Shown: positions 2,888 through 33,137 of the stretch, piece after piece | Numbering within the stretch: position 1 is the stretch's first letter | Layout: every line of letters starts with the position of its first letter | Source: Botryllus schlosseri | Taxonomy: Eukaryota | DNA length: 64,000 nt | Direction: 5' to 3' | Assembly (NCBI GenBank): GCA_051294905.1 | Contig: CM119371.1 | Span: forward strand, 2,482,001 to 2,546,000 | Program-made: the position numbers and the translations under genes | The notes under the pieces: model-generated | Database searches by the model: none | What the model was told of the DNA's origin: nothing | The model's input: the letters and a program-made list of their open reading frames with translations, nothing else

Positions 2888-3759
2888 CTGCAGAAAAGAG
2901 AGCTTATATTAGGAAATATATCAAAACTGCTACGTCATATTGGCTGTAAGAAATTATTGCAAATGGTACCGGTACCTTCTTACACTAGGACAGGGGTTCT
3001 CAACTTCCATCGTATAACGGGCCGCATTTTAACAGCGAAAGACGCTGCGGGCCGTAGAACATCATTTCCATGTATTAGTGGGATACTACCAAATTTAGGC
3101 TACTATAGCCTACTTCTTTCCTTCCATGGATGCAGCCCTACTAGTATTTCCACTCTGATAGAGAGCCCCCAGATAATTAATTCGCTCTCTAATGTCTGTG
3201 GAGTCAGTGGATTCGTCCGATGCCTGGCCAAAGTAGTCTACGCGTCAACGTATTTCAGAACATGCGATGAAACATCGACTGAAATTGCTGCTACTCTTCT
3301 GGTCACGGTTGAAACAGACAACTGTAACTTCAAAATTTGTCAGGTGATGTTGTCCTTGCTGTTAAGTATCGGAAGCAGCGAATATTCGTTTTATTGAAAT
3401 CACGCCTTCTATGGCCAATCTCGTGGGTTTAACGATATTACAAGCAATTTTAAACCATGCGTCTGTAACATAATCGACAATTTTAACATTGCCTCGAAAT
3501 ATAGATTGGTGGGCTTGATACCTAATAGCTAGCAATGTTTTTTCTAACACCAGGCGATGCGTACAACTTCAGAAGAAAGTGTCGTGGTATAATCTTGAGC
3601 TTGTACGCTTCGCCACGAAAACTGTTATTCGACAAATATGTCACATCGGTTTTCCATTCATATCTGAGAAAGCAAATTGATTGTTCCGAACGGAGTTACA
3701 AACTCAGTTCCCGCCGTTTAATTAGGCGAATTGGAGGGACCGTTATACGATCGGCAACG

Positions 3760-7619: not shown

Positions 7620-8072
7620 CAGTAGGGCTCTTTAAAAATGACATTTTTTTCAAATCGAACTGGCTACTTGATAAAATTGTTAGGTTACCTAATTTAGGCG
7701 CAATAAAATAGTATTTACGGTGACCGATTCTTTGTTTATTTATTATAGTTGTGCTCACCGTAAATACTATTTTATTCAAATCACAATTTTTCGACGGCAA
7801 TAACTCTGCTTCCACTGGTTGGAATTGAACCAAATTTGGGGAGCATCGTTTCTATTGACAGCCTAACACTTTCATGGGGTGAACAGAAAAGTTTCAAATT
7901 TTTTATTGTTTATTTTTATATAATAAATAGAAACTTTCTTCTCCTGTAGCAAAGCGGTTACTGGCTGGAATTGAACCAAATTTTGTGTGTAGGCCTAAAT
8001 TAGGTAACCTAACAATTTTATCAAGTAGCCACTTCGATTTGAGAAAAAAGTCATTTTTGAAGAGCCCTACTG
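7620..8072. mobile_element. MITE with ~80-bp TIRs, nested
   Basis: 7620-7699 is the near-perfect reverse complement of ~7993-8072 (CAGTAGGGCTCTT…AAGAGCCCTACTG). No clear TSD. Confidence 0.75.
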
Positions 8073-9098: not shown

Positions 9099-9580
9099 GA
9101 TAAGCCAACTATCAGTAAATATTAAATTGCTCCTGTATGAGAAAATACCTAAAATCCAAGAACAGTAGTTACGCTTTTCCAAGAACTTCATAAGCATAAA
9201 ATGTGGAGACTCAAGTCAGCAACTGCAAACAGACACAAATTTACCAGTCCCATTATCCATGTGAAATTCAATCACCGTTAAGGAACAAATCACATCAAGT
9301 ATCCAAGAAGCAAACAATTTTTTATATGTTCATGTCATTTACCAGGAGTCCAACTCCAACCTAGCGATCAGTAACCGTAACAACTAAGCTTCTAGTTCAG
9401 GATTAATATTCCCGTAAAATTTAATAATCCCGCCCTAAAACCCACGGAAGAACTTATAAAATACTGGAACTGAACTTCAAAACCTATTATTCTCAGTGAA
9501 CAGTTCTAGATCTGAAACTGTTTCAATTTGAACGGGCATATGATCCATGACTGGCAACCTGTCATTCCTCCTATGACTCT

Positions 9581-10462
9581 ATTGATGCTAAAATGTCTTG
9601 GAAACAGCATGTTGAATGCACAATATCAAAACTAGCTCGGTGTGTGGGAATAATGACCCGTCTGCAATCTTTGGTTTCCAGATCAATACTACGAACCATA
9701 TATTTTTCTCTTTTCCACTCTCACCTGCAATATGGAATCGTAGTATGGGGAAGTGCATGCAAAACATTTCTGTGCAGAATTCGAACCCTGCAAAACCGTG
9801 CGATACGGCTGATCTCATCTGTACCTTTACGTACCAATTTATCGCCTTACTACCGTAAGCATCGAATTTTGCGAGTTGATGAGCTATATCGCTTCGAAGT
9901 ATCAAAAGTTGTTCACAAATATTTTTCCAATAGTCTGCCTCCTGTGTTTGATGACTTTTTCATACCTGCTAAAAATGTCCATTCCCATTACACGAGATCC
10001 TCGTCAAAGGGAAATATCTACTTACCCCCACCCAATAGCAACCTAACTAAGAGATCTATCGACTACTCGGGACCTATCATTTGGAATGCATTACCACCAC
10101 ATATCCGTGAATTGCCTTATGATAGATTCAAAAAAGCCCTACTTGATCACCTCTTATCGTTACACTAACACTGTTGCCCTGCCTCGCCCAGACATTGCTT
10201 CATTGATCATTTGCTACCATCGTTTAATTTTTCTTCTATTTTATTTTTTTAACTACTGTAACTTTTTTTACAGCCAGACTGTTTAGAGTCAAGTGTACCT
10301 GTTTGATGCTGGTGTGATCAGACTAGATGACCCTCACGGTCTTATCGATCATTCCTATCTAATACCGAATACTGTGCATGCATATTTTCTGTACCATACC
10401 ACCACTGCCGTGTGTTATGTATTTTGGTTTGATGAAAAAATAAAGACTCTCTCTCTCTCTCT
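9581..10462 (+). mobile_element. 5'-truncated non-LTR retrotransposon (CR1 group: L2/Crack/Daphne-like), ORF2 C-terminus plus 3' UTR
   Basis: ORF 9593..10168 has the post-RT motifs IDxKMSWKQHV, IYFSLFHSHLQYGIVVWG, LQNRAIR, HSHYTRS and GPIIWNALP. Ends in AATAAA plus a (CT)n tail. Confidence 0.9.
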
Positions 10463-12158: not shown

Positions 12159-12449
12159 CGAAATCAGACAAGAGCAATACATTTTTGAAAAGAACTCTCT
12201 CTCTCTCTCTCTCTCTCATAATTTAAGATTCTGCAGTAAAAAAAATTTGGAAAATTTTGTGATTCCAGCTGCACCTTAGGGCCTTAAACTTATACGCCTC
12301 GTTACAACAACTGTTCTTAGACAAATATGACACATCGGCCTTCCATAACAATAATGTACCGCAGTAGTAATTGCGTTCCTAATGAAAGATGTCGCGGGCC
12401 GCAAAATAACTGTCTACGGGAGTAGTGTATAGGATCGGTCGTGACCTGG

Positions 12450-13200
12450 CAGGGGTTCTTATGGGCGGGGTGGCATGGTGCCGAGAAACCGGGGGTGGCA
12501 TGGTGACCCTTATGTCTTATGGCGGGGGTGGCATGGTGCCATTGTGTCTTATGGCTGCGGTGGCATGGTTACCTTTTCGGGTATAGGCTGCGGCGGCATG
12601 GTGCCGTGAAACTCGTGGTGGCATGGTGACCCTTATAACTATAGGCTGCGGTCGCATGGTGCCACTGTGTCTTATGGGTGCGGCGACATGGTTACCTTTT
12701 CGGGTATAGGCTGCGGCGGCATGGTGCCGTGAAACTCGTGGTGGCATGGTGACCCTTATAACTATAGGCTGCGGTCGCATGGTGCCACTGTGTCTTATGG
12801 GTGCGGCGACATGGTTACCTTTTCGGGTATAGGCGGCGGCGGCATGCTAACGTGAAAACTCGTGGTGGCATGCTAATGTTTTTAGGTATACGTGCGGCGA
12901 CATGCTAACGACGATGATGTGTCTGTCATGTATTCTTACGCGATATGTGGTGACTCGCCATGTGTTCTTATGGGTGCGGTCGCATGCGGCTATTGGTTCT
13001 TATGGGTGCGGTGGCAAGCGGCTCTTATTTCCTATGGGCGGGGTCGCAAGCGGCTGGGAAACTCGTGGTGGCATGCGGCTTTTATGTCTTATGGCGGGGG
13101 CGGCAAGCGGCTATTGTGTCTTGTGGTCGAACGGTAACCCTTTTCAGTATAGACTGCGGTCGCAAGCGGCTTCGTTGTTGGCATGTCGTACTTCGTGTTG
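12450..13200 (+). repeat. GC-rich subterminal minisatellite (GGTGGCATGGTG-type subunits; 123-bp higher-order period)
   Basis: TTACCTTTTCGGGTATAGGC recurs at 12569, 12692 and 12815. The mirrored but diverged array is at ~22500-23410. Confidence 0.9.
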
Positions 13201-16200
13201 AATATGTATCAAGTAAATAGTCATGTAAATGAACCTTTGTTAATGTGTATATCGTCGTGTATTCTTACAAGATCTCTACTGATTCACCATGTGTTCTTAT
13301 GGGTGCAATCGTGACTCGCCTTTTTTGCTATAGGCGGTGGCGGTGATTCGCCTGTCGTGTATTCTTACGGGATCTGTGGTGATTCGCCATGTGTTCTTAT
13401 GGGTGCGCTCGCACGTCGTACTTTCAAGTATAGGTATCTCTCGCATGTCGTATTGGAAACTCGTGTTGGCTCGCTCACGCGGTGAAATTTTAGTAATCAG
13501 TTTGTCGCAGAACTTGATTTCACTCGTAAGATTTAATAAGTAACGAATAACAGACCGCCAGTGTCGGTAACTTGAATAGCGACAAATTGTCACTTATTTC
13601 CGCTCTAACCCTAATCCTTTGTGAAGTGAACGATTATTCAAAAGGGTGTGATATCATTTTAAAATCCAACGACCACTCACCGGATATTGCCTCAGACATA
13701 GCAATCCCTCATACCCGCTCACAAGGTAATATTTCGGTAATTAGTTTGTCCCAGAACCGTCGCAGACGGTGATTCGAAAACCACCAATTTGTCACTTGCC
13801 CGCGATCGCTATATGTTTCACGCCTCCCGAATAGTGGCTGACTTTAGTTGCGTGATAAGATCCATGAAAATATTCAATCAATGTGTCAATTTGTCAACTT
13901 GAAATGAAACTTACTACACAACTCAAGTTGATTCGTATCTGAATGTGTTAATTCGGTACAATTCTAATTAATTTGAGAAATCTTTTGATTCGACCGTAAC
14001 CTGAATATTACTGACGCCGACTTTCAGCCGCATCGAATTATTCGCACATTCCACGCCGCTGTTTTCGCACTTATAGAATCAATACCAACTATAACTCTAC
14101 AAGAATCAAGAATCACAAGTATGTGCATTATACAGTTATTGTCTTTATCAACACGAAATCAAACTCTTAACAAAAACACACATCTTATCACTCGTCAACT
14201 CTATCATGAAAATCATCGAGTCCTTATCATCAAAAATGCTATAGTGCGGCGTCGGAATCCATTCGCGGGGTGTACTAAAGTTAAATCCAGATAATCCAAA
14301 ATTCAATATTTGGACTTTGCCATAGTGTGAATTGAAATAGGATTGACAAACATGACTACCAACTTTGATCCAGCCACATTTCAAGATTATACTTTGAAAC
14401 AAGTAATGTAACATTACAACTCTATTCACGACCCCGCTTTCCGTTTGTCAAAGAGATATTTTAACATCTTACCATACTCAAAAGAATTATTCACAACATT
14501 AACAATTGTTAAAAATCTAGTTTCACTTACTTGATTATATCACTACAACTCACAAATTTGAATTAATTCATCCTGGTTGCATTCGTATGATCGGTCTTTT
14601 TTATTCGATTGTAAAGGTTGTTACTATTCTGAAGACAAAGTATTTACTAATCGGTGCATATACGATTTGACTTGGACATATTATATTTTGAGTATACGAG
14701 ATTTGAATGTCTGAACAATAACTGAGAATTAATTTATCGCAATTAAATCCGTATATTACAGCGTAAAAGATATTGGGGTGTCAGCAACTCTGTACGGTCG
14801 TAGTTACAACCACATTAACTAATCTACCCAGGCAACTCGTCATGATCATTCCTGAAATCAACACAAACACGACTACTGACTTGAGTTAACCGCGAAACAG
14901 CATCAAGTTTTAAATCCGCTTGCAGCTGACGGATTATTCGAATGCATCGATGGAGAATATTATTGAACTCGTCGGTATTGTCACTTCAACAAATTACACC
15001 GACTGCGAAAGTTAATATCGAATGGTAAGACTTGATCACATATTTGTTGAACACAGACATGACAAAGAACATGATCGGGATTTTATAAACTAGTCATATT
15101 ACTTTTGGCATCTATCAATATCAGAATACAAGACATCAAACTTTTTGTTAAATGTAACATAACACTTTTGGAATCGGATTCGTTATAGTCGTACAAATTG
15201 TATTAAACCCAACATCAAAACAAAAGGACTTTTTTAGTTCATTGAAATCAAATCATTCGTCTTCGACTTGTGCTTTTTTAGATTGCCCGCGACAATTCGT
15301 TTCGAGTGAGTTGTAACCAAAGTCAAGATATCTTTGTGTCCACAGATATGGAAGATGAATATAGCTAACACAATCACGAATCGACGTTTCAGAGTATTTC
15401 ACGGATGTAATAAACTTGTTAGTGTCACCTATCTAAAAGTACGCATGCGTTCGATTTCCATACCGACTGTTCCGATGTTTAGGATTCACTTACAATAACC
15501 ACGGGTGAGGATTTAACATCAACGTCGTTACTGGTGGTATTCACAACAGAGAATCGAAACATTACACAGTGTGAAAATATATCTTTGATATCAAAGCATT
15601 ATCCCAAGTATACGATTAATAGTCAACTCCGTTCACACTTTCTATAGAACGTGCTAAATGTAAAATATCACGAGGTTGCACTCTAAGACTTTGATCATTA
15701 CAAAAGTAAATTGGAATATGTTTGCTGGATGCATTCAATTCAGCTAGAAATGTCTAGTGCACAACAATCGTAATATCAAGGAAGTACTTGCTATCACTAA
15801 ACGTGTTTTGTATCGTTGTTCATTTGTAGTATTGATTGAAATTGTTTTTGAACACGCAAATAATAATTCCCGACATGAAACCAAGTCGCTGAAAGTCGTT
15901 ACCATAACAAAGAAACAATTTGTACGATGTTTGGCAAATGTACCCTATAGTTAGGTGTACTAGAATTATTTGTGTAACACATACACCGACAATGCAATCG
16001 AAATTTTTTCCGTTGTCATTCGCTAAAGTAAATGTCATCACAATACTCTGTCACTAAAAGACGTTACTCGGACGTGCTTGAATTCTAGGCATAGTTCTGA
16101 TTTACCCAACACAAGACCCAAGGACAACCCTAGTTTCAGTCGAACACAGATATCCAAAATATCGCACACTTCGCTATTCCTAAAGCGCAAACACCCGATA

Positions 16201-17354
16201 CAAAATATTACTTGTTGTGTTGTTGCGGCATCATCTTCACAATATCACCCTCGATACAAATGATGTTTATGTGTAACATGCTATTGATTTGAATCACACC
16301 CACCTGACGGAAGAGGATTTACTCAATCTTTACAAAATGGATATTGACCAACATCACATCGCCGGATTGTATCTGTTTTGCTGGATACGAGTTATGTTAG
16401 TTTAACAGTAAACAAATTTCACCCTCTTGTATTATGAACTCAATGCGTTAGCAGTCATTCAATATTTTGTTTGTGTCAACTAGTTACTTGGTATGTTACT
16501 CCACAACTCTTACAAAAGTACGACGGATATTAACATCACACTAAGTAATTAACTTTACTCCGCTTTCACAACAAAACAGCTAGTAGATATTATCATTCAA
16601 AATATTCCTAACCCTTTACACATCAGTAACAAATCATACAACGAATATGTTTTGTGGGTCGAGTTGTTGTTCAGTGTCAAGTCTACCTGTTGAAACGTAC
16701 ATTAAAACAACACAGTCACAATCAAATTAAAACCGCGAATCTATTTTCATTTCCTCGCAAACTGTCACATACAGAAAAATAAATTTAATTTCCCAAAACA
16801 TACTTGTAACCAATCGCTTTCATTAAACACACAACACTATAATAGTATTTACTTTCTACAACATAGACATTCCGGTGTAGTCAAGAAATCAAAATCATCG
16901 ACTTCTGTTTACGGTGTTAGTGTGTGCATGTCATACATGTGGGCCCGTATTAAAATGGACACGACACGACTGACTGTAAGGAGATAGAAGTCTATCGCAT
17001 AGATTTACATGTGGTCTTCGCTACGGTTTCAAAAAACGAATCATCTCTTTTGCATTGATCTAGACCGAGCAAGTTAGTTAATGGCCATGATTGTGTTTGT
17101 CATATGCGAATGATAGGGTTACTGTCAAATCTACATACAACAATCTTCTGACGATCATAATAGCAATTTTATTTTCCGCCCCTTCATAATTGTAAAACTC
17201 GGTAACTACGTTTAACAAGACCAATCACACTACCAGCGTTGAACACAAGATACCTACCCAAGTAAAATTATCATTTTCACCTAGAGGTCCACCATCACCT
17301 AACTAAAATACCATTGTCCTTTGGAGATTTATCGTTTACCCAGTGTAACAATCC

Positions 17355-17850
17355 CCTTTTCACTTGGAAATCTATTTTTGCCCTGGATAACAAACCTCTT
17401 TTCACTTGGAAATCTATTTTTGTCCTGGATAACAATCCTTTTTCACTTGGAAATATATTTTTTCTCTTGGTAACAAAACTTTTTCACTTGGAAATCTATT
17501 TTTTCTCTTGGTAACAATCCTTTTTCACTTGGAAATATATTTTTTCTCTTGGTAACAAAACTTTTTCACTTGGAAATCTATTTTTTCTCTTGGTAACAAA
17601 CCTTTTCCACTTGGAAATCTATTTTTTCTCTTGGTAACAAACCTTTTTCACTTGGAAATATATTTTTTCTCTTGGTAACAAACCTTTTTCACTTGGAAAT
17701 ATATTTTTTCCCTGAGCAACAAACCATTCTCACTTGGCGGGTCGTCGTTTACCTTAGTAAAAATATCATTTTCCTTTGGAGATCCGGCGTTTACCTAGTG
17801 TAACAATACATTTTCTCTTGGTCATCTAGCTTTTCCTAGAGTAACAAAAC
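17355..17850 (+). repeat. ~41-bp tandem array (about 10 copies, then degenerating) at the palindrome centre
   Basis: CACTTGGAAAT recurs at ~17361, 17403, 17444, 17486, 17527, 17567, 17608, 17649 and 17690, with a degenerate copy at 17731. Confidence 0.95.
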
Positions 17851-20800
17851 CATTTTCATTTTGAAATCTGACAAACACACCTGACAATTTGGTATTTGTT
17901 GTATTGACGATAGTTTGAAATAGATTACAACGAACAGTGACGGAAATAGATTTCCAAGTGAAAAGAGGTTTGTTATCCAGGGCAAAAATAGATTTCCAAG
18001 TGAAAAGGGGATTGTTACACTGGGTAAACGATAAATCTCCAAAGGACAATGGTATTTTAGTTAGGTGATGGTGGACCTCTAGGTGAAAATGATAATTTTA
18101 CTTGGGTAGGTATCTTGTGTTCAACGCTGGTAGTGTGATTGGTCTTGTTAAACGTAGTTACCGAGTTTTACAATTATGAAGGGGCGGAAAATAAAATTGC
18201 TATTATGATCGTCAGAAGATTGTTGTATGTAGATTTGACAGTAACCCTATCATTCGCATATGACAAACACAATCATGGCCATTAACTAACTTGCTCGGTC
18301 TAGATCAATGCAAAAGAGATGATTCGTTTTTTGAAACCGTAGCGAAGACCACATGTAAATCTATGCGATAGACTTCTATCTCCTTACAGTCAGTCGTGTC
18401 GTGTCCATTTTAATACGGGCCCACATGTATGACATGCACACACTAACACCGTAAACAGAAGTCGATGATTTTGATTTCTTGACTACACCGGAATGTCTAT
18501 GTTGTAGAAAGTAAATACTATTATAGTGTTGTGTGTTTAATGAAAGCGATTGGTTACAAGTATGTTTTGGGAAATTAAATTTATTTTTCTGTATGTGACA
18601 GTTTGCGAGGAAATGAAAATAGATTCGCGGTTTTAATTTGATTGTGACTGTGTTGTTTTAATGTACGTTTCAACAGGTAGACTTGACACTGAACAACAAC
18701 TCGACCCACAAAACATATTCGTTGTATGATTTGTTACTGATGTGTAAAGGGTTAGGAATATTTTGAATGATAATATCTACTAGCTGTTTTGTTGTGAAAG
18801 CGGAGTAAAGTTAATTACTTAGTGTGATGTTAATATCCGTCGTACTTTTGTAAGAGTTGTGGAGTAACATACCAAGTAACTAGTTGACACAAACAAAATA
18901 TTGAATGACTGCTAACGCATTGAGTTCATAATACAAGAGGGTGAAATTTGTTTACTGTTAAACTAACATAACTCGTATCCAGCAAAACAGATACAATCCG
19001 GCGATGTGATGTTGGTCAATATCCATTTTGTAAAGATTGAGTAAATCCTCTTCCGTCAGGTGGGTGTGATTCAAATCAATAGCATGTTACACATAAACAT
19101 CATTTGTATCGAGGGTGATATTGTGAAGATGATGCCGCAACAACACAACAAGTAATATTTTGTATCGGGTGTTTGCGCTTTAGGAATAGCGAAGTGTGCG
19201 ATATTTTGGATATCTGTGTTCGACTGAAACTAGGGTTGTCCTTGGGTCTTGTGTTGGGTAAATCAGAACTATGCCTAGAATTCAAGCACGTCCGAGTAAC
19301 GTCTTTTAGTGACAGAGTATTGTGATGACATTTACTTTAGCGAATGACAACGGAAAAAATTTCGATTGCATTGTCGGTGTATGTGTTACACAAATAATTC
19401 TAGTACACCTAACTATAGGGTACATTTGCCAAACATCGTACAAATTGTTTCTTTGTTATGGTAACGACTTTCAGCGACTTGGTTTCATGTCGGGAATTAT
19501 TATTTGCGTGTTCAAAAACAATTTCAATCAATACTACAAATGAACAACGATACAAAACACGTTTAGTGATAGCAAGTACTTCCTTGATATTACGATTGTT
19601 GTGCACTAGACATTTCTAGCTGAATTGAATGCATCCAGCAAACATATTCCAATTTACTTTTGTAATGATCAAAGTCTTAGAGTGCAACCTCGTGATATTT
19701 TACATTTAGCACGTTCTATAGAAAGTGTGAACGGAGTTGACTATTAATCGTATACTTGGGATAATGCTTTGATATCAAAGATATATTTTCACACTGTGTA
19801 ATGTTTCGATTCTCTGTTGTGAATACCACCAGTAACGACGTTGATGTTAAATCCTCACCCGTGGTTATTGTAAGTGAATCCTAAACATCGGAACAGTCGG
19901 TATGGAAATCGAACGCATGCGTACTTTTAGATAGGTGACACTAACAAGTTTATTACATCCGTGAAATACTCTGAAACGTCGATTCGTGATTGTGTTAGCT
20001 ATATTCATCTTCCATATCTGTGGACACAAAGATATCTTGACTTTGGTTACAACTCACTCGAAACGAATTGTCGCGGGCAATCTAAAAAAGCACAAGTCGA
20101 AGACGAATGATTTGATTTCAATGAACTAAAAAAGTCCTTTTGTTTTGATGTTGGGTTTAATACAATTTGTACGACTATAACGAATCCGATTCCAAAAGTG
20201 TTATGTTACATTTAACAAAAAGTTTGATGTCTTGTATTCTGATATTGATAGATGCGAAAAGTAATATGACTAGTTTATAAAATCCCGATCATGTTCTTTG
20301 TCATGTCTGTGTTCAACAAATATGTGATCAAGTCTTACCATTCGATATTAACTTTCGCAGTCGGTGTAATTTGTTGAAGTAACAATACCGACGAGTTCAA
20401 TAATATTCTCCATCGATGTATTCGAATAATCTGTCAGCTATAAGTGGATTAAAAACTTGATGTCGTTTTTGTGGTTAACTCAAGTCAGTGGTCGAGTTTG
20501 TGTTGATTTCAGGAATGATCATGACGTGTGGGCAGGGTAAATTAGTTTATGTGGTTGTAACTATGACCGTAAAGAGTTGCTGACATTCCAATAAGACGAG
20601 TTGGTGGTATATGCCTAAAACCGAACTTGATATGTTTGTTGGTTGTAGTGATTACTTGCGTAGTCTTGTCTACTTTTCGTAAGGATACTTTTTGTTTTGG
20701 TTGGGTAAGTTACAAACGGATTGACTTGACAAGGTTTTTTGTATTTTACTCTTTTGTGTATGGGAAGATGTTAAAATGTTGAGACGTAATACTATTTCCG

Positions 20801-22499
20801 TTCACTCGATTACAACATCAACAAAAAATAACCTGATAGTTTGTTCAAGGTTTCGACAAATAGATTGAAATATTCCGATTTACGATTTAACTCATCGCGT
20901 CACAAGTCGATCGCGGTATGCACAAGTGGTTGTCAAGTTAGAAATATTTACAACAGGTGCTATTTCATTGATTGATTCTATTGTGTGTAGTAACACATTA
21001 AAATATCGCGATAGTATTTACTGAAACTCTATTTGATAAACGGAAAACTCAGTCGTGAATAGAGTTGTAAGTTTCAAGGGTTGTTTCAAAGTATGATCTT
21101 GAAATGTGACTGGATCAAAGTTGGTAGTCATGTTTGTCAAAGTCCAAATATTTCATTTTGGATTATCTGGATTTATCTTTAGTACATCCCGCGAATGGAT
21201 TCCGATGCGGTACTATAACATTTTTGATAATAATGACTCAAGGATTTTCAATCAACAATACTGGAATTTTTTGGTAATGCTAGAGTTGACGAGTGATAAG
21301 ATGTGTGTTTTTGTTAAGAGTTTGATTCCAAGTCAATAAAGACAATAACTGTGTAATGCACATACTTGTGATTCTTGATTCTTGTAGAGTTATAGTTGGT
21401 ATTGATTCTATAAGTGTGAAAACAGTGGCGCGGAATGTGCGAATAATTCGATGTGGCTGAAAGTCGGCGTCAGTAATATTCGGGTTACGTTCGATTCAGC
21501 AAAAACGCGTTAAGGGATTTGTCAAAGGATTAGAGTTGTACCGATTTAAAACATTCAGATACGAATCGACTTGATTTGTGTAGTGAGTTACATTTCAAGT
21601 TGACAAACTAACACATTGATTGAATATTTTCATGGATCTTATCACGCAACTAAAGTCAGCCACTATTCGCGAGGTGTGAAACATATAGCGATCGCGGTCA
21701 AGTGACAAATTGTTGGTTTTCGAATCACCGCCTGCGACGGTTCTGGGACAAACTAATTACCGAAATATTACCTTGTGAGCGGGCATGAGGGATTGCTAGC
21801 ATTATCCGGTGAGTGGTCGTCGGATTTTAAAATTATATCACACCCTTTTGAATAAGCGTTCACTTCACAGAGGATTAGGGTTAGAGCGGAAATAAGTGAC
21901 AATTTGTCGCTATTCAAGTTACCGACACTGGCGGTCTGTTATTCGTTACTTGTTAAATCTTACGAGTGAAATCAAGTTCCGTGCCAAACTATCAAAATAT
22001 TACCTTGTGAGCGATTGGTATGTATGTAACATCAAGTCACGAATGATGGCTATGTCTGGGACATTATCTTGTGAGTGATCGTAGCATTTTACAAATATTT
22101 CACACCTTTTTTGAAGTGTTAGTTTGTGTGCACGGTTATTGTTGGTGTTGAAGTCGCCGTCTACGTCGGCTCTGTGACAAAATAATTACCAAAATATAAA
22201 TCTGCGAGTGATGCTTACGAATATTTCACCGCGTGAGCGATCGATATGTCTGTAACACCAAGTCGCGAAAGATGGTTATGTCCGAGATATTATCTTGTCA
22301 GCGATCGCGGGGTTTTGCAAACTATTTCACACATTTTTGAAGTGTTAGTTTGTGAACGCGGTTATTGTTGATGTTCGAAACGCCGTCTACGCCGGCTCTG
22401 CGGTAAACTAATTACCAAAATATTACCTTGGAAGTGATTCCTTGTCAGCGATTGCGGGGTTTTGCAAACTATTTCACACCTTTTTTGCTGAAAGTACGA

Positions 22500-23410
22500 C
22501 ATACCGCCCGCAGTCTATACCGAAAGTACGAATCACGACCGCATCCATAAGACGCAATAGCCGCATGCGACCCCCGCCGTAAGAAATAAGAGCCGCATGC
22601 CAACACGAGTTTCCAATACGACATGCGAGAGATGCCTATACCCGAAAGTACGAATCACGACAGCGTCCATAAGAATCCATTACGAATCACGGGAAAGTAC
22701 GAATCACGACCACGAGTTTTCATTACGATTCAGGAATAGTGTAATAATCGATAGTAGCGGCTGGACGAGAAATAATTCAGCACGCAGGTCGTTCGAAATA
22801 TAGGTCGCACTGCTTAATCCTCACAACAAGTCACGTTTCCGTCCGCGCGGTTATTGTTGGTGACTCGTACATATTCAACACCGCGCGAGAGATGCCTGAA
22901 AGTACGAATCACGACCGCACCCATAAGAACACATGGCGAGTCATCACAGATCCCGTAAGAATACACGACAGGCGAATCACCGCCACAGCCTATAGCAAAA
23001 AAGGCGAGTCACGACCGCGAGTTTTCACGATATACACATTAACAAAGATTCATTCACATGACTATTCACTTGATACATATTCAACACCGGTCGAGAGATG
23101 CCTATACTCGAAAGTACGACATACCACCCCGAGTTTCCATGCGATGTGCGAGAGATGTCTATATCTAAAAGTGCGACATGCCACCACGAGTTTTCCATGC
23201 GATGTGCGAGAGATGTCTATATCTAAAAGTGCGATATGCCACCACGAGTTTTCCATGCGATGTGTGAGAGATGCCTATACCGGAAAGTGCGACATGCCAC
23301 CCCACCCATAAGAACCAATGGCGATGTGCGACCGAGAGGGGGGTCTAAAAGCGCGATATGCCACCCCGGGTTTTCCAGGCGATATGCCACCCCGCCCATA
23401 AGAGCCCCAT
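22500..23410 (-). repeat. right subterminal minisatellite of the foldback
   Basis: Repeated ATGCCACCACGAGTTTTCCATGCGATGTGCGAGAGATG and CACCCCGCCCATAAGA units; inverse relatives of 12450-13470. Confidence 0.8.
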
Positions 23411-23809
23411 GCAAAAATTAGCCGCTCACGACCGATCTACTATACTACTCGCGTCTGCGAGTCTCTGTTGCTTAACCAGTTGCGAACTTGCTGGCACGAT
23501 ATCTTCACTTGCACTTGCTCGACGCGATCTCCATTGCGATTTCTCGCCAGCAAGAATTTTTTATTGTGGCTATCCGACAGTCCATGTTAACATTGTGTTT
23601 GCTATCGCAGCGGATTTAAATGTTGAGTACACAATTGCGCAATATTCATTGCTAGGCTACATGATTGAAGCATTGCCATATAAAAGAAAGTGAGCCTAAA
23701 ATTCTCCTTAAAAAATGATTGTACTCGCAGATAAACATATTGATACCCACTGTCTGTATACCACTTATTCCAGATTTTGTTAGTTGCCGATTCACAGAGC
23801 AGCTTGGCT

Positions 23810-24055
23810 ATGATTCATATATATGTATCAAACCATGAGTGCATGATGTGCATATGATGCTGCTGGACATTAAAGGTAAAGTAATCGAGTTTGAATACTT
23901 GGTAAATTTTGCACCGATTCACTGTGCCATCCCTGAATGTTGAATGTCAAGCGCCAACCTACGCATATCAGTTCTACTAATCAGTTCTCATGTCTGACAC
24001 GGTCGGGGATTGAGACACGATATAGCGGCCAAGCACCTGGTCGCGCTATCATTAT
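23810..24055 (-). mobile_element. old decayed copy of the 11824 SINE family (also ~31250-31480, ~39470-39715, ~45350-45580)
   Basis: Reverse complement contains CCCGACCGTGTCAGAC…CTGATTAGTA and GTCCAGCAGCATCATATGCACATCATGCACTCATGG, matching 11875-11910 and 12018-12050. Confidence 0.6.
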
Positions 24056-27000
24056 GTTATCCTGTCTATTAGGAGTTTACGCACCTTTAATTACCTCGAG
24101 CCGATGCATTAAGGCAGTTCTTTTCAACAATGAGTCGGAAATTCCATCGTTACATATGTTAATATCCAGCTATTATAGTAATGTTTTTTTCCAATTAACT
24201 CTCACGAAAGTCAGCCTAACATATTCCAGTTTATTCAATACACCGTATTCAATCGGTCAACGTTCCTGTTTACTACCACCAAAAGTCGGAACGTGCCACT
24301 GGATGTTTGTTTAATTCTGATTGCCTCAGTCCTAAATTACCCCATAAACTGATATCGCTGGATTGCCGTAAATGCGACATCTAAAGCTTTTTATTGCCGA
24401 TTGCCGTGTGCCGTACACATTATGAGCAAGACGGTGCTCAACTAAAGTAAACATTGTTAGCGATAGCGTTTGGACGAATCAGATATCAAATACCAAACTG
24501 CATGTCATTGAATTAGATTGATATATATAGCTAATAGCGATGGTGTGAACGTGAAGTTCACGTTCGCGATTTGTGTGTGAACCTCTGAAATTTAGAGGTT
24601 CTCGTTCACAAACGAACCTTGGTAGGTTCTGCACTGTGAAACTTCTGAATATATTACACTTTTTAGCATCATTATAACATCTTTGGTTGAAATTATTTGC
24701 ATTTCAAATTACGGCCAATTTATGCATGACTATGGCACTGGCAGCATAACAAGAATCTACACTACACTAGCATGCACTTGCCAATCTCCAAAATTTCATC
24801 ATCTTTGTTACAAAAGTTTGCTTGAAATATTCAACTTTTCGCTTGTGAATATTTTATTACCTCTGTGCTGTGAGCTTGGTCAGCAATCCCATGACACATA
24901 GAGCGAAATCCGCAACATGTAGGTAGTCAGCGGATGATGCTCATTCAACCAATCAATGAAATTGACAGAACGAAAACATCATTGTCCGACGTAAAAAATT
25001 CTAGCAGGCGTACGGGACCCATCTTGATTTGATATGTATTGTATCATGAAAAAAAACAAATCCTAGTCACTAGGGTGTGTGCTACTTAGAAATTTGTTAA
25101 TGAAGGAATATAGGTAGCGGAGTTGGAGCAATTGTAATTTGTAATTGAGGTGAATTTATTTTTTTACATTTTTTTCATATAATTTGATTGTAATTGTAAT
25201 TGAAGCATTTCTATTTTGAGTAATTGTAATTGTAATTGTCATTTAACGAAAATTTTGCCCAGTTACAATTTCAATTACATTGACAACTACACTAGCATGC
25301 ACTTGCCAATCTCAAAAATTTCATCATCTTTGTTACAAAAGTTTGCTTAAAATATTCAACTTTTCGCTTGTGAATATTTTATTACCTCTGTGCTGTGAGC
25401 TTGGTCAGCAATCCCATGACACATAGAGCGAAATCCGCTACATGTAGGTAGTCAGCGGATAATGCTCATTCAACCAATCAATGAAATTGACAGAAAGAAA
25501 ACATCATTGTCTGTAATTGTAATTATCCTTTAATGAAAATTTTGCCAAGTTACAATTTCAATTACATTGACAATTCAAAATGTTGACCAATATTTACCTG
25601 TCACTGTATTACCAATTGCAGCTACGACTATATGAGCACTTGGTCGCTAGCTATTAGCCTACCCACATTAACATCGTGATGTAAAATTTTTCGTGTATTA
25701 CAAATAGCCGACGGTGGATCATGGAATGGGTAAATTATGTACGTAAGCGGGAAAGTATCGGAGACGGTATTGCCATGGATTACATTAGGTTCAGGGGCAT
25801 CTATGCCAGTGTTTCTTAAACTTTTCCCGACCGCCTACCACTAATTAGTTTAACTTCACGGCGTAGGCCTACCATCTGAATGCCAAATGACCTCTCAGTC
25901 AAATGTACCAGTAATATTAGTAATTGCCGTTCATAATAGATCATAACACCAGTGAATAGTTAGGAAAGCGGATTTAACATTCTAGATACAACTGTTTCCT
26001 CCAGACCAGATTGTCCAGGAGGCGTATAGCAATATTCATAACTCACAGGCTAATATGTCAATTGTCCAGGCTCAGTTGGACCATCTCTTCCATTTAATGG
26101 CATGATAATGCATTGATATGGGGTGATTACTTCATGAATGTAATCGATTGCGACTAAGATTACTTCTGAATCACGGGATTACGATAACGTTTACGATTAC
26201 AGCAAAATCAGGAAGTAGTCGAATACGATTACATTGGAAAAGTAATCATGATCACATTCATTTTGCTTCTCAGAACTAATCTTACAAGATATATTGGAAG
26301 ACAATATAAGAATTGCGAAAAGGCCTAATGAGATAATTAATTTATTCAAATATGAGACTTCATTTGCTTGCTACTTCATAATGTGCCATTGCCCAATTAT
26401 ATAGGGCAAGACTTATCGCATCCAGCGAATTGATTTCTTGCCAGGTCAGTAACTTCCGCACCCCAAACTCCCCTATAGGGTGGGGATTGCGTTAGAAGAG
26501 AGCTCAGTATTTCGCAAATCAATGTAAATTATGGAGTATTTTGAAGAGATTTAATTACCTTGAAAAAAACCTTTTTCAAACTTCGTGATTTAATGTCTGA
26601 AGATAGCATGATTTTGAAATAGATTCCTCTCACCCCCTCAAGAAAAATATATGCGACTCCGTGAAGTTTGCTAACAAAGAAACACCTTGACTGAAACTTT
26701 GGGTATGTGTCCATTGTCAATAGCCGCGATGGGTGGGTGTGACGAATAGTGCGGTCCTTCCAATCTGAGTTCCACAATACAAATGACATCCGGGGCACCA
26801 CAGAGAAAGGAACACATCAAAATTTGTGTGCACGTCCCGCGAATTATTTTTTTAGTCTACTACGTTTGGGTTAATAAAATATCTTTTGATCATATAACAG
26901 ACGGGAGGTCACATCCTATATACGAAAAAGTTAACTCGAGTCTGACTACAGTCAAGTCATGACTCGAGTCATCTCAACACTGGTTTTGACTCGAGTCAAA

Positions 27001-27837
27001 TCGAATCATTTTCAATTCACCTTCCTAGACAAGTCCGAGTCCAAGTCATCGAGCCGAGGGTCGAGTCCACAATTATACACTCAGCATTTTAAATCTCTCT
27101 TATTGTGAAATTACAATTATATGTGCACGGTAGCCTACGTAATAGCATGTGTATTCCGTCTTATGTTCCGAATACGACATCCGTACGCAAAGCCATATAA
27201 CTAGAATTTTGTCATTCGAACTTATCTAACTGCGTAATAATATAAATAATATATTTGATTATATGATACGAACATTCATCGAACTTCATCTGTAAATCAA
27301 TCTGATTCGTTCAGTTGATGATGAGTTAAGCGATTATTGAACAAATGATGCGGCTACAACTTTTGAATCGTAAAATGAGCTCCGTACACATAATAAATGT
27401 TTAGCGTCGACTGATATATGGTTTTTTTGTTTCAGTTGACTGTGCAAGGTACGTTGGGGTGCATTGGTCTTAACGTTGCACATTGTACGCACTGTCAACG
27501 CATCGATTATCTTCATTTAATATTCCTTGGTTGCTGAATGCTATTCCGAGTCGGGGAACTTACCCCGCAAGCTCGCAGTCCCTTACAAATTTCAAAGTTG
27601 ACTTACCAGAGTAATTCTGGTTTGCATTACGTACCATAAACTTATCTTGCTTCCAGGAGAATACGGACAAAAAGAAACGTTCAACCAACATCTGTGTGCC
27701 AGAACGATGATAAGGCATTGATCTTTGTGATGATGTTGTATTAGCACGACAGGTAATGCGGAATGCAATATAAAATTAGTTGCTGGCAATCCTGTGCATG
27801 ATATTGCAAATGAGAAGCACATTGCACGTCTGCGAAC

Positions 27838-28071
27838 GGTGATGCGTCCGGCTTGTTGATCGGCAGGTCGTGGGTTCGATCCCCGACCATGTCAGGCCAA
27901 AGACTCGAAAACTGGTATCCGTGGCTATCGTGCTAGGCGCTCAATAAATACGGATAGCATGGAGGAGAAAAACAGGGCTGTAGACTAGATGACCTAGCTA
28001 TAAAGGAGGTTGCATCTCCGTCGTCAAAGCTTCTTGCTGGTGCGGGCAAAAATAATACCATATCTCTCTCT
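27838..28071 (+). mobile_element. tRNA-derived SINE, second 3'-tail type (copy at 43502-43735)
   Basis: B box GGTTCGATCCC, same core as the 11824 SINE, different tail containing AGACTAGATGACC and ending (CT)n. Confidence 0.8.
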
Positions 28072-28392
28072 TTGACACGTCACAAATAAATTGCCACGAT
28101 AAGATTGATTAGATGAATTAATACCAGGGGTCCCCAAACTAGGGTCGCGACTCCAAGGCTATCGGCGGCTCATTTCTGAATATTTTAGTTCATTTTTTTA
28201 AAGGGAAGAAAAAGCGACCTACGTGATATGCGATCCAGGAAAACAAGGTATCATATCTGTCGAAGCGTCATTTTAAAGGGTCATCTAATATAACACAAGG
28301 TTTGTGTATTGTTATTAGAATTAAGATTGAATTGCCGGGATCATGAAAACCAATACGACGGGAGTGCCATGTGATGAAAGTATAATGCATAC

Positions 28393-29952
28393 CAGAGTTG
28401 GATCAATTGTAATTTGTAATTGTAATTGAATGTAATTAATTACATTTTTCAATGTAATTGTAATGTAATTGTAATTGAAGCATTTTTATTTTGTGTAATT
28501 GTAATTGTAATTGTAATTTGACAAAAAATTTGCTCAATTACAATTTCAATTACATTAAATTGCTATTGAGACCTGACAAGCACAACATAAAATAATTGAC
28601 GTATAATGCATTCTCTTTAAATGTCGACAAGGAATTTGGTGGATCCATTCGCGGAAGCCCTTGACTGCGCCCTTGCGGGTGAAGTTTTTTTTTTTACCGC
28701 TATGCTGGCCTCGGTTGCCATTGTATACAATTTTTAGATTACTAACCAACGGATGGATTCGCAACACGTGACTCACGATTGAATACGCCGAGAAGCGAAC
28801 TGCTGAGCCGGCTAAAAGCAGCAGAATTGATAGTCCCACAGCTGGCGATCCAAGCGTCGAAATTTAATATGTATGGTCCTAATCGAAAGCTAGCGTCGCA
28901 CTGATTCCGCAATAAAAGTATATTTCCAGGCAATGGTACCATCCCAAAATAGTCGTGAAAGTCTGGGAATCGGCATTGTTCTGAACAATCGCTGGGCGTA
29001 ATTGGTAATTGTTGTGGTCATGCTGCTGCAGCGCTCTCACTTTTCAGAGCAGTCGACCTTAAACGGCTATTTTGGAGCAGTTACATTGCCCTGACGAGAT
29101 TTTATATTGTATTTTCGGAATTAGTACATCAATAGCTTACGATAAAGACCAGATGCATCAAATTCGGACGCATGGATCGCCAGCTTTAGGACTACAAAGT
29201 TTGCTGCTTTTAGCCGGCTCTGCAGTACGTTGTCGGTACATTCATCCGTGACTCACATCTTGCGCATCTATCCGTGGGTTGGCAATCTACAATACGATTT
29301 CAGATCACGATGCTGCATCGTTACGTCGTCTGGCTAACTAACCAGACCACTGGATATTATATAACGTCTTATCTGACAAAGCACGGTTTTGTTTTTACTC
29401 CTCATCCTAATTCCTACGTCCCTCGATAAAAATAATATTATTTCTTTAATTATATACTATATACGCAAATCCAACACGTGCATATATTATAATACTTTTT
29501 CAACGACATACTGCACTCTATCCTCAATCCTAACCCATAGGAAATTAGGTAAATAACATTTTACATTTCCAATTACGTGAGCCATAATTACCGAGCATAC
29601 AAAACACGTTTATATTACGTCACAATGACATCTTACATAGCATACTATGTACGCACATAAACGCATTTATTACTACACAATCTGAACTAGACTTGAATTG
29701 TTGTTAAATACGACGCTACGGTTGTCAAGGAGCACGGTTGAATTTATGATTATTCAATTACATGTTCAACAGCAGCAATTGTAATTGTAATTGTAATGTA
29801 ATAGAAGCATGCAAGGAGTAATTGTAATTGTAATTGTAATTTGATATTTTTAGCATGGAGTAATTGTAATTGTAATGTAATTGAAACATGCATGAAAGTA
29901 ATTGTAATTGTAATTGTAATTGAACTGAAATAATGTAATTGATCCAACTCTG
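28393..29952. mobile_element. young hAT-type non-autonomous element with (ATTGTA)n subterminal arrays
   Basis: TIR CAGAGTTGGATCAATT, perfect 8-bp TSD ATGCATAC. Empty site in the duplicate at ~44049-44056; the offset change of 1568 equals 1560+8. Confidence 0.95.
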
Positions 29953-32810
29953 ATGCATACACAGGACATGTGCGAACGGCGCAGTCGGCTAGGTAAGTTG
30001 TATATTGGTATCTGTATTTCGCGTGACGTGAATAATCACATAAAATACTTGATGACTTCGATTGGATATAGATAGAAAACGTTCCGATAGTCATAAATAC
30101 GTTGCTATAGTATTGATTAAATTTCCTAAACTCAAGGATGGAGGTGAACGAGTTCATAACTGCAAGCTTGGTATTGCTGCGCACATACTCGCCAGCTCTA
30201 AAACATGAGTCGCGAGTAGGTTTGGTCGAAGGTGCTGACCATTTTCAGTAATCGGCACGCCAAATTGAGAGGTTTGGTCGCAGAACATTCTGAGATCGAA
30301 ATTTTGGGTCGCGACCAAAATAACTGATCATACGTGAAATTGTGAAGGCTATACACACTGAACAGTGTGAGCACTCCGTCAACTTCACGTACTCGCCATT
30401 CGCACGGTCCTTATTTGTTTTTCTCCTTTGTAATCTTATAGTTTCCCTCACACATCTTTTGTTGAAGTGTTACTGACCGACAGTTGCATGATATAAATGT
30501 TCTAACGTTACGCATTGACTACAGCTGACTTGAAGACTACACATCTTGATGTGGTCATATCGCTGTGTTTGTCTTTTTTACATATTTGTGTGAACAATCA
30601 TCGTACGAATAAAGAATCTGTCCGTCAAAAACATGCGGTGATTACTTCATCAACGTATTTGATTGCGATTACGATTACACCAAAATCTCCTTTACGATTA
30701 TATTGTTAAAGAGACAGTGCAATCTCAATATGATGCAGTCTCGTATTGAAGGTAAAATCGGTAAAAAATTCTTGGCCGCAACCATTTTCTTCAGAAAGCT
30801 TCCGTATTGAAGCTGCAGCTAAACGAAAATTCCAACGACCTTAATTACTCGCCAGTTGAATTAGTATTGTCTGTAATTGTGGCGCGGCTGCGAGTCTCTG
30901 TTGATTAACCAGTTGCGAACTTGCTGGCACGATATCTTCACTTGCACTTGCTCGACGCGATCTCCATTGCGATTTCTCGCCAGCAATTATATTTTATTAT
31001 CGCTATCCGACAGTCCACGCTAACATGGCGTTGGCTATCGCGGCAGATTCAAATGCTGAGTAAACAATTGCGCAATATTGATTGCTAGGCTACCCGATTG
31101 AAGCATTGCCATATAAAAGAAAGTGAGCATAAAATTCTCTCCCAAAGAATGATTGTACTCGCAGACAAACATATTGATACCTACTGTCTGTATACCACTT
31201 ATTCCAGATATTGTGAGTTGCCGATTCACAGAACAGCTTGGCTATGATTCATATCTGTATCAAACCATGACTGCATGATGTGCATATGATGCCTATGGAC
31301 ATTAAAGGTAAAGTAATAGAGTTTAAATACTTGCTAAATTTTTCACCGATTCACTGTGCCATCCCTGAATGTTGAATGTCAAGCGCCAACCTACGCATAT
31401 CAGTTTTACTAATCTCATGTCTTACACGGTCGGTGTTTGAGACACGACATAGCGGTCAAGCACCTGGACGCGCCATCATTATGCTATCTTGTCTATTAGG
31501 AGTTTCCGCACCTTTAAATACCTTGAGCCGATGCATTAAGGCAGTTCTTTTTACGAATGAGCCAGAAATTCCATCGTTACATATGTTGATATCCATCGAT
31601 TATAGTAATTTATATATCAATTACCCCTGACAAATGTCAGCCTATAACATATTCGAGTTTATTTCAAAACACCGTATTCAATCGGTAAACGTTCCGGTTT
31701 ACTACCACCAAAAGTCAGAACGTGGCACTGGATGTTTGCTTAATTCTGATTGCCTTGGTCATAAATTACCCCATAAACTGATATCGCAGGATTGCCGTAA
31801 ATGCGACATCTAAAGCTTTCTATTGTCGATTGCCGTGTACCGTACACATTATGAGCAAGACGATGCTCAACTAAAGTAAACATTGTTTGTGATAGCGGTT
31901 GGACGAAGCAGATATCAAATAACAAACTGCATACCATTGAATTAGATTGATATATATAGCTACTAGGGATGGTTCGGGTTCGCATTCAAGTTCGCGATCT
32001 GTGTGTGAACCTCCGAAATTTTAGAGGTTCGCGCTCCCAAACGAACCTTGAAAGGTTCTGCACTGTCAACCGCTTTTGAATATATTACAATTCTTAACAT
32101 CATTATAACATCTTTGGTTAAAATTCTTTGCATTTCAATTTCGGTCCACTCTATGCATGGCTATGGCAGCATAACAAAAATTCACACTAAACTAGCATTC
32201 ACCTTGCCAATCTCAAAAATTACATTTGATTTGTTACAAAAGTTTGCTTGAAATATTCATCTTTTCGCTTGTGAATGTTTATTACCTCTCTGCTGTGAGC
32301 TTGGTCAGCATAAACATGACACATAGAGCGAAATCCGCTACATGTTGGTAGTCAGCGAAGGATGCTTATTCAACCAATCAATGAAATTGACAGCAAGAAA
32401 ACATCATTGTCTGACGTAAAAATTCTAGCAGGCGTACGGGGCCCATCTTGATTTGATATGTTCATTGCATCATAAAAAAAAATATGTGCGACTGGGGTGT
32501 TGGCTACTTGGTAATTTGTTAATGAGGTAATATCGGTAGCAGAGTCGGATCAATTGTAATTTGTAACTAAGCTGAATGTAATAAATTACATTTTTTCATG
32601 TAATTGTAAATGTAATTAAATTGAAGCATTTTTATTTTGTGTAATTGTAATTGTAATTTATTGAAAATTTTGCCCAATTACAATCTCAATTACATTGATA
32701 ATCACAACATAAAATAATTAGCCTATTTTCATCGATGTTCAGCCATGCTAAACTGTTTGCCATACTTCAGTAGTAACAGAAAACGCAGCGAATTACAATA
32801 TAGGCTAAAC

Positions 32811-33137
32811 CAGTGGTTCTCAAACTTGGGACCGTCCCCCCCTCCCTCCTTGTTAGGCGTGAAAGCATTGGATAGGGGGGCCGAAGCTCCGGTAAATTGA
32901 AAAATTTTATCGCACTTCGCGCGATTTACCTCTATTTCATAGTTATTGCTCTGTGTATAGTACGAATTTCATATTGGAGAAATCTCTCATCAACAGTGAT
33001 AACCTTCCATACCATCAAACCATCTATATATGTAAGGATTTCCAACATTCTGGTTTCATTGTGTGCTATTATGACGATAAGGGAGGCACGAAATATATCA
33101 CTGTCATAAAAAAAGCTAAAAAGTTTGAAAACCAGTA
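32811..33137. mobile_element. hAT (Charlie-like) MITE (copy at 47478-47804; inverted relative at ~50873-51907)
   Basis: CAGTGGTTCTCAAACTT…AAGTTTGAAAACCAGTA with 8-bp TSD GGCTAAAC. Confidence 0.85.

Follow-up and report, generated by a model that had tools for sequence, protein, structure and literature searches.

A candidate recombinant of two palindromic, high-copy elements with Maverick/Polinton-type ends in Botryllus schlosseri

How might an 11-kb element arise whose two halves mirror each other and whose tips resemble those of a Maverick/Polinton, yet which carries none of the core Polinton genes? Such an element lies at 12421-23449 of the window, the 64,000-nucleotide stretch of the B. 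schlosseri genome analysed here (assembly GCA_051294905.1, contig CM119371.1, positions 2,482,001 to 2,546,000). A sequence-only reading had proposed a non-autonomous foldback with two origins. We put a probability of about 0.6 on a modified version: the element belongs to a high-copy, non-autonomous and putatively near-wholly palindromic family with Maverick/Polinton-type ends, and the copy at 12421-23449 is a recombinant of two members of that family. The Maverick-type ends, the lack of core genes, the high copy number and a copied inner arm agree with the earlier proposal; its view of one intact element is not supported.

Ends, arms and gene content

The terminal motif occurs at exactly two sites in the window, even when up to three mismatches are allowed, against a chance expectation of 0.03; none of 100 shuffled sequences contained at least two sites. 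Both sites are base-perfect, lie on opposite strands and face inward, and they bear (AGT)2//(ACT)2, which like (AG)3 is an end motif of Mavericks/Polintons. The search thus recovers the AGTAGT-N6 ends read earlier at both tips. The GC-rich minisatellites said to lie inward of them are present after each terminus, although the right subterminal repeats are arranged differently from the left ones, which include a 123-bp period repeated 3.3 times at 12472-12872. The arms, estimated earlier at about 5.0 and 5.5 kb around a 524-bp spacer, measure 4,999 and 5,506 bp (Table 1). The left fold point, at 17419, falls within a 41-bp AT-rich tandem array.

Table 1. Features of the element and its flanks, in window positions.
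Feature	Position	Strand	Basis
Host flank A: remnant of a GCGGGCCG-type MITE end, truncated at the left terminus	12386-12420	+	motif and 14-nt spacing
Left terminus: (AGT)2 and conserved 12-mer	12421-12444	+	motif search
Left GC-rich subterminal minisatellites: 32-, 58-, 100- and 123-bp periods	12445-13470	+	
Left outer arm: 85% (91-95% ungapped) against 21028-22014	13471-14456	+	
Left-arm-specific segment: no BLASTN match in right arm	14457-14770	+	
Switch zone: 24 differences across 14771-14982 and only one beyond them, at 15107	14771-15107	+	
Left inner arm: 2,312 bp, identical in inverted orientation to 17944-20255	15108-17419	+	
41-bp AT-rich tandem array: 9.5 well-kept, ~13.5 total copies	17307-17868	+	
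524-bp spacer (loop): mainly 41-bp repeats and a short unique tail	17420-17943		
Right inner arm: exact mirror of left inner arm, including family-rare letters	17944-20255	-	
Putative crossover interval, with copy A on its inward and copy B on its outward side; 20202-20255 at the narrowest	20202-20380		inference
Right-arm-specific segment: family-level depth in X1, X4 and X11	20594-21027	-	
Right outer arm, copy B type	21028-22014	-	
Right subterminal repeats: 226-bp duplication at 22007-22423, 58 bp x3.6 at 23092-23301, 32-bp units	22015-23425	-	
Right terminus: (ACT)2 end and conserved 12-mer	23426-23449	-	motif search
Host flank B: 99.9% copy (5 differences) of 39112-44056	23450-28392	+	

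The claim that nearly the whole element is an inverted repeat holds in that the arms are homologous, but the palindrome has two tiers and is exact in the inner arms only. Specifically, the two inner arms together make up 42% of the element, and extending their identity back to 14983 admits a single mismatch in 2,437 bp. At 1% divergence, the absence of any mismatch in 2,312 bp would have a probability of ~1e-10. Outward of 14982/20381 the identity drops sharply: the switch zone opens with its cluster of 24 differences, the two arm-specific segments (14457-14770 and 20594-21027) give no BLASTN alignment with each other, and the terminal minisatellite zones share ~73-85% identity and are broken by indels hundreds of bp long. 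Overall, the outer arms are ~73-95% alike, with large indels and arm-specific segments. Terminal inverted repeats are therefore present, but they are 5 kb long and diverged near the tips. Self-complementarity of this partial kind, with homologous yet diverged outer arms, is expected of a recombinant and not of a fresh snap-back molecule.

Searches with Pfam and PHROGs found no pPolB, integrase, ATPase, protease or capsid gene in the element, as had been claimed for pPolB, integrase and capsid ORFs. Neither collection matched any of 12 translations (six frames each of 13400-17943 and 20200-22601, with stops read as X), and ORF numbers in the arms equal chance, the longest stop-free frame in the arm cores being 101 aa. 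The window ORFs inside the element gave two sub-cutoff DUF matches only in Pfam, and a phmmer search of 1.84 billion proteins with a single frame (of six) from 14000-17299 returned no match. Separately, stop triplets are slightly under-represented on the left arm's inward strand (z -2.15, one of eight tests), and there are some protein-like stretches. These hint at decayed small genes, which are not established by ORF counts or by 3-periodicity (0.6-2.7 in the arms versus 3.4-4.8 in the NACHT exon).

Family abundance, arm copying and flanks

Four of 24 public runs supply the evidence on abundance and variation: the contigs of X1, X4 and X11, and the RNA run X23. The median contig depth over 17740-23173, a figure that adds up contigs and does not count copies, is 1.9e5 in X1 (possibly the source sample) and 1.7e5 in X11. 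Relative to two flank bins, the element is 171-1,175 times deeper in X1 and 82-493 times deeper in X11; in X4 the depth is 25-260 on the element versus 0-0.3 on the flank. Depth on the spacer tail matches that on the arms. With many variant contigs, and with this contrast between element and flank in all three contig runs, the element is a member of a high-copy repeat family, presumably a dispersed one. Among the matches listed, which are pieces of ~100-300 bp, no contig bridges 17943/17944 or 23449/23450 or joins the switch zone with both diagnostic arms, and the centre junction is absent from the joints and loose ends listed.

X4 is labelled as another organism, and its contigs cover the element and not the flank. 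We do not read this as horizontal transfer or as a free form of the element, as a trace of host DNA would give such depth ratios. The terminal motif also occurs in viral contigs (2 matches) and metagenome contigs (19), none with BLASTN similarity to the element; these 21 loci, at 57-73% GC, are set aside as chance. In the RNA run X23 (~6% of the run), 124 reads match the element at a mean depth of 0-6 per bin; 85 of them are 90-95% identical, 118 are partly aligned, and 93% run on into unlike sequence.

At all 17 inner-arm positions taken from 40 contig rows, the left arm has the same letter as the right, and at the 6 of these that were checked, 96-99.9% of the X1 depth carries another letter. 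Rare letters are thus mirrored in both inner arms, and therefore one arm was copied from the other; the two are not independent. X4 pieces (8 of 604) differ from the window at 17 of 982 inner-arm letters but at 2 of 494 letters of the outer right arm (Fisher p 0.047), which marks the outer right arm as a normal family haplotype rather than a decayed one. Its pieces in other runs are 99.4-99.7% identical (X4, 315 bp and 179 bp; X11, 140 bp; one difference in each). Divergence between the arms, together with these read pieces, suggests that the two ends come from different subfamilies.

The point of exchange can be placed within ~180 bp. An X4 piece over 20125-20342 differs from the window only at 20201 and matches the right arm at 20256, a site where the arms differ, which is the pattern that a crossover between arms would give. 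Mutation alone could also produce the three haplotypes at 20201/20256.

No target-site duplication (TSD) of any length from 4 to 9 bp surrounds the element, and at 6 bp only 2 of 6 letters match. Flank A ends in part of a MITE, which we take to be hAT-like, with the same motif and 14-nt spacing as a complete MITE end near 54030-54090, and the expected continuation of this MITE is not found on the right side of the element. Conversely, the sequence upstream of the cut in the duplicate unit of flank B (38860-39111) is absent to the left of the element. The two ends therefore sit in unrelated host repeats, each without its other half. The right flank itself differs from its duplicate at 5 of 4,945 letters, and Pfam matches to NACHT and LRR domains lie outside the element (21 window ORFs searched). 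Because the outer arms are of different haplotypes and the flanks are mismatched, this is a hybrid copy and not, as had been supposed, one intact foldback with two matching origins.

A recombination model and its rivals

With its end motif, missing core genes, high copy number and copied inner arm, the element fits a putative non-autonomous, snap-back-like Polinton derivative; it had been called a 'copy-back' element, but in the terms used in PMC13506859 its shape is 'snap-back'. Formation could have begun at one end of a Polinton-type replicon, where a growing strand that folded over onto the 41-bp array would have copied that end back, to leave a molecule with two end-origins and no core genes. 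A helper Polinton's polymerase and integrase would then amplify and insert such molecules, and hairpin re-copying or arm-to-arm conversion would keep the two arms of a copy identical. The sequence itself shows a left arm and spacer from copy A, which also accounts for the inner 2.3 kb of the opposite arm; the outer part of that right arm, with the flank beyond it, belongs to a different haplotype, B. The two copies would have exchanged by ectopic homologous recombination, with a crossover near 20202-20380, linking flank A with flank B and either removing or inverting the intervening host DNA.

We infer that the copy at 12421-23449 marks the breakpoint of a deletion or inversion, in a tandemly duplicated region that contains an NLR gene, which suggests that palindromes of this family can delete or flip host DNA between copies. 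The reciprocal product of an inversion is not found within the window, where only the two termini occur. As a damaged hybrid, this copy is a poorer example of its family than intact copies with TSDs.

The strongest rival, although an unlikely one, is an assembly or library chimera, in which the assembler, a fold-back read or a chimeric read joined two loci or collapsed the inner arms. A very high-copy repeat, exact identity adjoining an abrupt switch, mismatched flanks, and a centre and right junction bridged by none of the records listed are all compatible with such an artefact, and the Galileo authors raise the same caveat for their own chimeric copies (PMC3573991). However, the window is free of any N, an 11-kb element is within the span of long reads, if these were used, and both termini are perfect to the base. 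Moreover, the identical stretch between diagnostic sites, perhaps 55-180 bp, is too short for an overlap join.

About equally unlikely is a single old element whose arms diverged in place, with the inner 2.3-2.4 kb lately homogenised by arm-to-arm conversion or fold-back repair and the flank separately deleted to one terminus. Identity does climb towards the centre, and extension of terminal inverted repeats (TIRs) by repair from the opposite TIR has been proposed for Galileo (PMC3573991). The near-identity of the outer right arm to the X4 and X11 pieces argues against decay in place, as do the family-level depth of the right-arm-specific segment and the few differences between the right flank and its duplicate. 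This explanation also needs two separate events.

Two further readings are improbable. The intact, inward-facing termini would suit one foldback that was made and inserted as it stands, with two working origins, but a copied-back molecule should match out to its tips, whereas here the outer arms have diverged and include segments that do not align, and the flanks are unrelated and lack a TSD. To a similar degree, we doubt a Foldback/Galileo-like DNA transposon with an ordinary transposase and a coincidental (AGT)2 end. Long TIRs with tandem repeats and gene-less two-TIR and chimeric copies are Galileo traits (PMC3573991), and no Polinton gene or homologue was found in the element; nevertheless, exact (AGT)2//(ACT)2 is the commonest Maverick end (PMC8097293), and the longest Galileo TIR, at 1,260 bp (PMC3573991), is a quarter the length of the 5-kb arms. 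Finally, the suggestion that the palindrome is kept as a long-dsRNA source silencing an autonomous element is very improbable, for although a read-through transcript would give a perfect 2.3-kb stem and X23 reads occur in both orientations, this single bulk RNA run holds only a trace signal, mostly from other copies.

Consequences and comparison with known systems

The recombinant reading leads to a broader and more tentative proposal, to which we give rather less than even odds. An animal genome may carry high-copy, integrated snap-back Polinton satellites: palindromes with two protein-priming origins, their symmetry renewed at each replication, that act as recombination hotspots deleting or inverting host DNA, here by an NLR gene in a fresh duplication. 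The hotspot role would arise because every copy offers homology in both orientations. To our knowledge, Polinton replication has been inferred from gene content and not observed. If the proposal is true, the satellites are both a fossil record of a Polinton replication intermediate and an engine of structural variation. Arms that share private mutations would make hairpin or template-switch intermediates, and dependence on a helper, open to test. The present copy would add that such palindromes recombine with one another, and from its unmatched flanks one would expect a deletion or inversion, which can be looked for in a second haplotype. If such behaviour is general, these elements would generate structural variation in immune-gene clusters.

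A literature search, mostly of titles and abstracts and with little coverage of subscription papers and repeat-database reports, found no paper on whole-length palindromic Polinton derivatives. Palindromic replicons of phi29 and hairpin forms of the pGKL1 plasmid reportedly exist, though searches for them turned up no such paper. In 1992, Vierula and Bertrand reportedly described a hairpin deletion derivative of the kalilo linear plasmid, which can be likened to the element, although the kalilo form is a free molecule and the element is integrated. Short parasitic replicons, one of them traced to recombination at a repeat, are also described in PMC11494085, the available part of which does not mention inverted forms.

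According to PMC8097293, vertebrate Mavericks/Polintons share with the element (AGT)2//(ACT)2 termini, inverted ends and a size near its own (12.7-24.6 kb). The element departs from them in lacking pPolB, integrase, ATPase, protease and capsid genes, and the 12421-23449 copy in lacking a 6-bp TSD; its 5-kb arms also exceed the Maverick TIRs of 46-1,447 bp (PMC8097293) and the ~2-kb TIRs of butterfly polintons (10.1101/2025.02.07.637071).

Galileo/Foldback of Drosophila mojavensis likewise has gene-less copies made of two long repetitive TIRs, and chimeric copies with divergent TIRs and mismatched flanks (PMC3573991). There, 12 of 170 copies with divergent TIRs and non-matching flanks were put down to ectopic recombination and likened to inversion breakpoints (PMC3573991). 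Galileo, however, is a P-superfamily element with a 7-bp TSD and TIRs of up to 1.26 kb, whereas the present element has Maverick-type ends and an exact 2.3-kb inner mirror. In Caenorhabditis elegans, Polinton TIRs have been proposed to drive inversions; the eri-6/7 locus resembles ours in holding several Polinton copies or TIRs whose recombination is proposed to have inverted host DNA (10.1101/2024.01.15.575659). That case involves 744-bp TIRs of ordinary Polintons and was shown across many strains, whereas ours involves a whole-length palindrome, with the rearrangement deduced from one haplotype.

Snap-back defective viral genomes offer a further parallel: they are nearly fully self-complementary and non-coding, have two ends of one type and depend on a helper replicase (PMC13506859). 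The element, too, would be expected to need such a helper. Whereas snap-back defective genomes are free RNA or DNA in replication, the element is integrated chromosomal DNA at high copy.

Architecture and coding content of the palindrome

Both ends of the element carry the AGTAGT-type motif described by the sequence-only reading, and a search of the window finds it at these two sites only (chance expectation 0.03); as that reading had also said, GC-rich minisatellites directly follow each terminus. Its further claim that nearly the whole element is an inverted repeat stands for the arm lengths and the spacer, but the mirror is exact over only 42% of the element, both arms taken together. Specifically, the palindrome consists of two tiers, an exact inner mirror and diverged outer arms. 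Extending the mirror back to 14983 adds one further mismatch, and divergence outward of it is sudden; the terminal repeats of the two arms are about 73-85% identical with very large indels. The left fold point falls within a motif present five times in the 41-bp array of the spacer. In the spacer tail, one copy of a doubled 10-bp motif lies just before the fold point and the other across it; template switching may have left this pair behind.

Twelve six-frame translations (stops as X; 13400-17943 and 20200-22601) yield no match in Pfam or PHROGs, and ORF numbers in the arm cores are those of simulated sequence, which bears out the earlier statement that no pPolB, integrase or capsid ORF is present. 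Nor do these translated stretches reveal a small spacer gene, or IAP or SSB genes in the arms. Similarly, the one frame of six searched for 14000-17299 has 0 relatives among 1.84 billion proteins. At the sensitivity of the Pfam/PHROGs, ORF-count and protein searches, the element is gene-less. The inward strand has a weak stop deficit (z -2.15, one of eight tests) that may reflect decayed small genes.

Coordinates of the element's parts and of neighbouring features
Feature	Position	Counterpart	Detail
Terminal motif	12421-12444 (+)	23426-23449 (-)	
Arms	12421-17419	17944-23449	4,999 and 5,506 bp
Spacer	17420-17943		524 bp, mainly 41-bp array
Exact inner mirror	15108-17419	17944-20255	2,312 bp
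Stretch outward of mirror	14771-14982		24 differences
Segments unaligned to opposite arm	14457-14770; 20594-21027		
Outer left arm	13471-14456	other arm	85% identity with gaps, 91-95% ungapped
Doubled 10-bp motif	17914-17952		26 bp apart
Right flank	23450-28392	39112-44056	99.9% identical
Nested tandem duplications	23450-48276		over older 88-91% layer
Young duplicates	29940-31954	44036-46050	99.7%
Young duplicates	32582-33609	47248-48276	99.5%
Insertion with inverted ends	28393-29939		1.55 kb; AATTGT-type microsatellites each side; in one of two young duplicates only
NACHT frame	1440-2903 (-)		487 aa; NACHT (E 9.9e-19), NOD2 winged helix
Frame after NACHT frame	410-883 (-)		weak LRR_6 match
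Further frame	9551-10168 (+)		205 aa; no Pfam match
Element with inverted ends	7620-8072		80-bp ends, 95%
Palindrome inside MITE	53330-53549		220 bp, near-perfect (95%)

Copy level, rare letters and the switch in the right arm

Parts of 14000-23999 occur in 20 of the 24 sequencing runs listed, from 8 studies, and four runs were compared over 17740-24000 (contigs of X1, X4 and X11, and RNA of X23). Set against two flank bins, summed contig depth over the element was 171-1,175x in X1, which may be the source sample, and 82-493x in X11, a measure that is not a copy count; in X4 depth was 25-260 over the element and 0-0.3 over the flank. These data show that the element is a repeat present at high copy level. 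Depth does not drop over the spacer tail or over the right-arm-specific segment, so both occur beyond this locus. Run X4 is filed under a different organism label and holds near-identical element pieces with almost no flank; the simplest source for these is a trace of host DNA.

At many inner-arm positions the letter in the window is rare, and at six checked 96-99.9% of X1 depth reads another letter. The left arm has the same letter as the right at 17 of 17 such positions (from the 40 rows listed), an agreement that follows from exact arm identity. Because rare letters stand in both inner arms, conservation across the family does not suffice to explain why the arms are identical; copying from one inner arm to the other took place once the lineage had gained these letters.

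One piece from X4 (20125-20342) has a single difference to the window, at 20201, and matches the right arm at 20256, a site where the arms differ. Among the 8 X4 pieces listed out of 604, excluding the one that crosses the switch, differences number 17 in 982 letters of the inner arm and 2 in 494 of the outer right arm (p 0.047). Read most simply, these pieces make the right arm A-type (as are the left arm and spacer) inward of about 20201, and of a common B-type (as is the right flank) outward of 20256-20380. One crossover would account for the exact inner mirror, the sudden divergence and the unmatched flanks.

Flanks and neighbouring features

No target-site duplication (TSD) of any length from 4 to 9 bp borders the element, whose right end is exactly where a young duplicate starts. 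The right-flank unit recurs at 30883, 39112 and 44979, in all three cases without the element and with common upstream sequence that is absent left of it. The left flank stops midway through the terminal motif of a MITE, presumably hAT-like (complete near 54030-54090), and no continuation was found right of the element. Because the TSD, the upstream sequence and the MITE continuation are all missing, the two ends lie in two different insertion sites.

Elsewhere in the window, the NACHT and LRR_6 frames belong, as exons, to an NLR-type gene some 9.5 kb to the left of the element; the window has no second NACHT exon. The 205-aa frame resembles the C-terminus of a LINE reverse-transcriptase ORF. 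The 1.55-kb insertion is likely a recent small element with terminal inverted repeats (TIRs), and the features at 7620-8072 and 53330-53549 are short foldback repeats.

Origin and comparison with known systems

Taking the end motifs, the palindrome's two tiers, the rare letters shared by its arms, the high copy level and the unmatched flanks as the observed basis, we give a probability of about 0.6 to the following history. One end would have folded back onto the 41-bp array, the protein-primed polymerase and the integrase of a helper Polinton would have amplified and inserted the product, hairpin copying or conversion would have renewed its symmetry, and ectopic recombination between two copies would have deleted or inverted the intervening DNA.

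Misassembly is unlikely, although none of the records listed bridges the centre (17943/17944) or the right junction (23449/23450); for the centre they count neither for nor against. In-place arm divergence with conversion is also improbable. We regard a single intact foldback as very unlikely, given the unmatched flanks. Equally remote is a foldback transposon unrelated to Polintons, considering the Maverick-type ends. A silencing role is the least credible: in about 6% of run X23, 124 RNA reads matched, 118 of them only in part and 85 with 90-95% identity. They have both orientations and a depth of 0-6, a trace from related copies that lends no support to the dedicated long-dsRNA source proposed earlier. 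The element is real and more complex than first described, probably a recombinant member of an abundant family of palindromes with Maverick-type ends.

This putative Polinton-derived family appears undescribed in form, yet has mechanistic precedents; the literature searched (mostly titles and abstracts, most subscription papers being outside its scope) held no description of integrated whole-length palindromic Polinton derivatives. Snap-back defective genomes (PMC13506859) and, reportedly, a hairpin derivative of kalilo are precedents for the palindromic shape. Vertebrate Mavericks end in (AGT)2, are flanked by 6-bp TSDs, carry eight core genes and have TIRs of 46-1,447 bp (PMC8097293), and butterfly polintons have TIRs up to about 2 kb (10.1101/2025.02.07.637071). 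The element shares the end motif but lacks the genes and TSD, and therefore is not classed as a Polinton; it would work like a Polinton derivative. Its hybrid state has two precedents: chimeric Galileo copies (12 of 170) with divergent TIRs and non-matching flanks (PMC3573991), and C. elegans inversions proposed to be driven by Polinton TIRs (10.1101/2024.01.15.575659).
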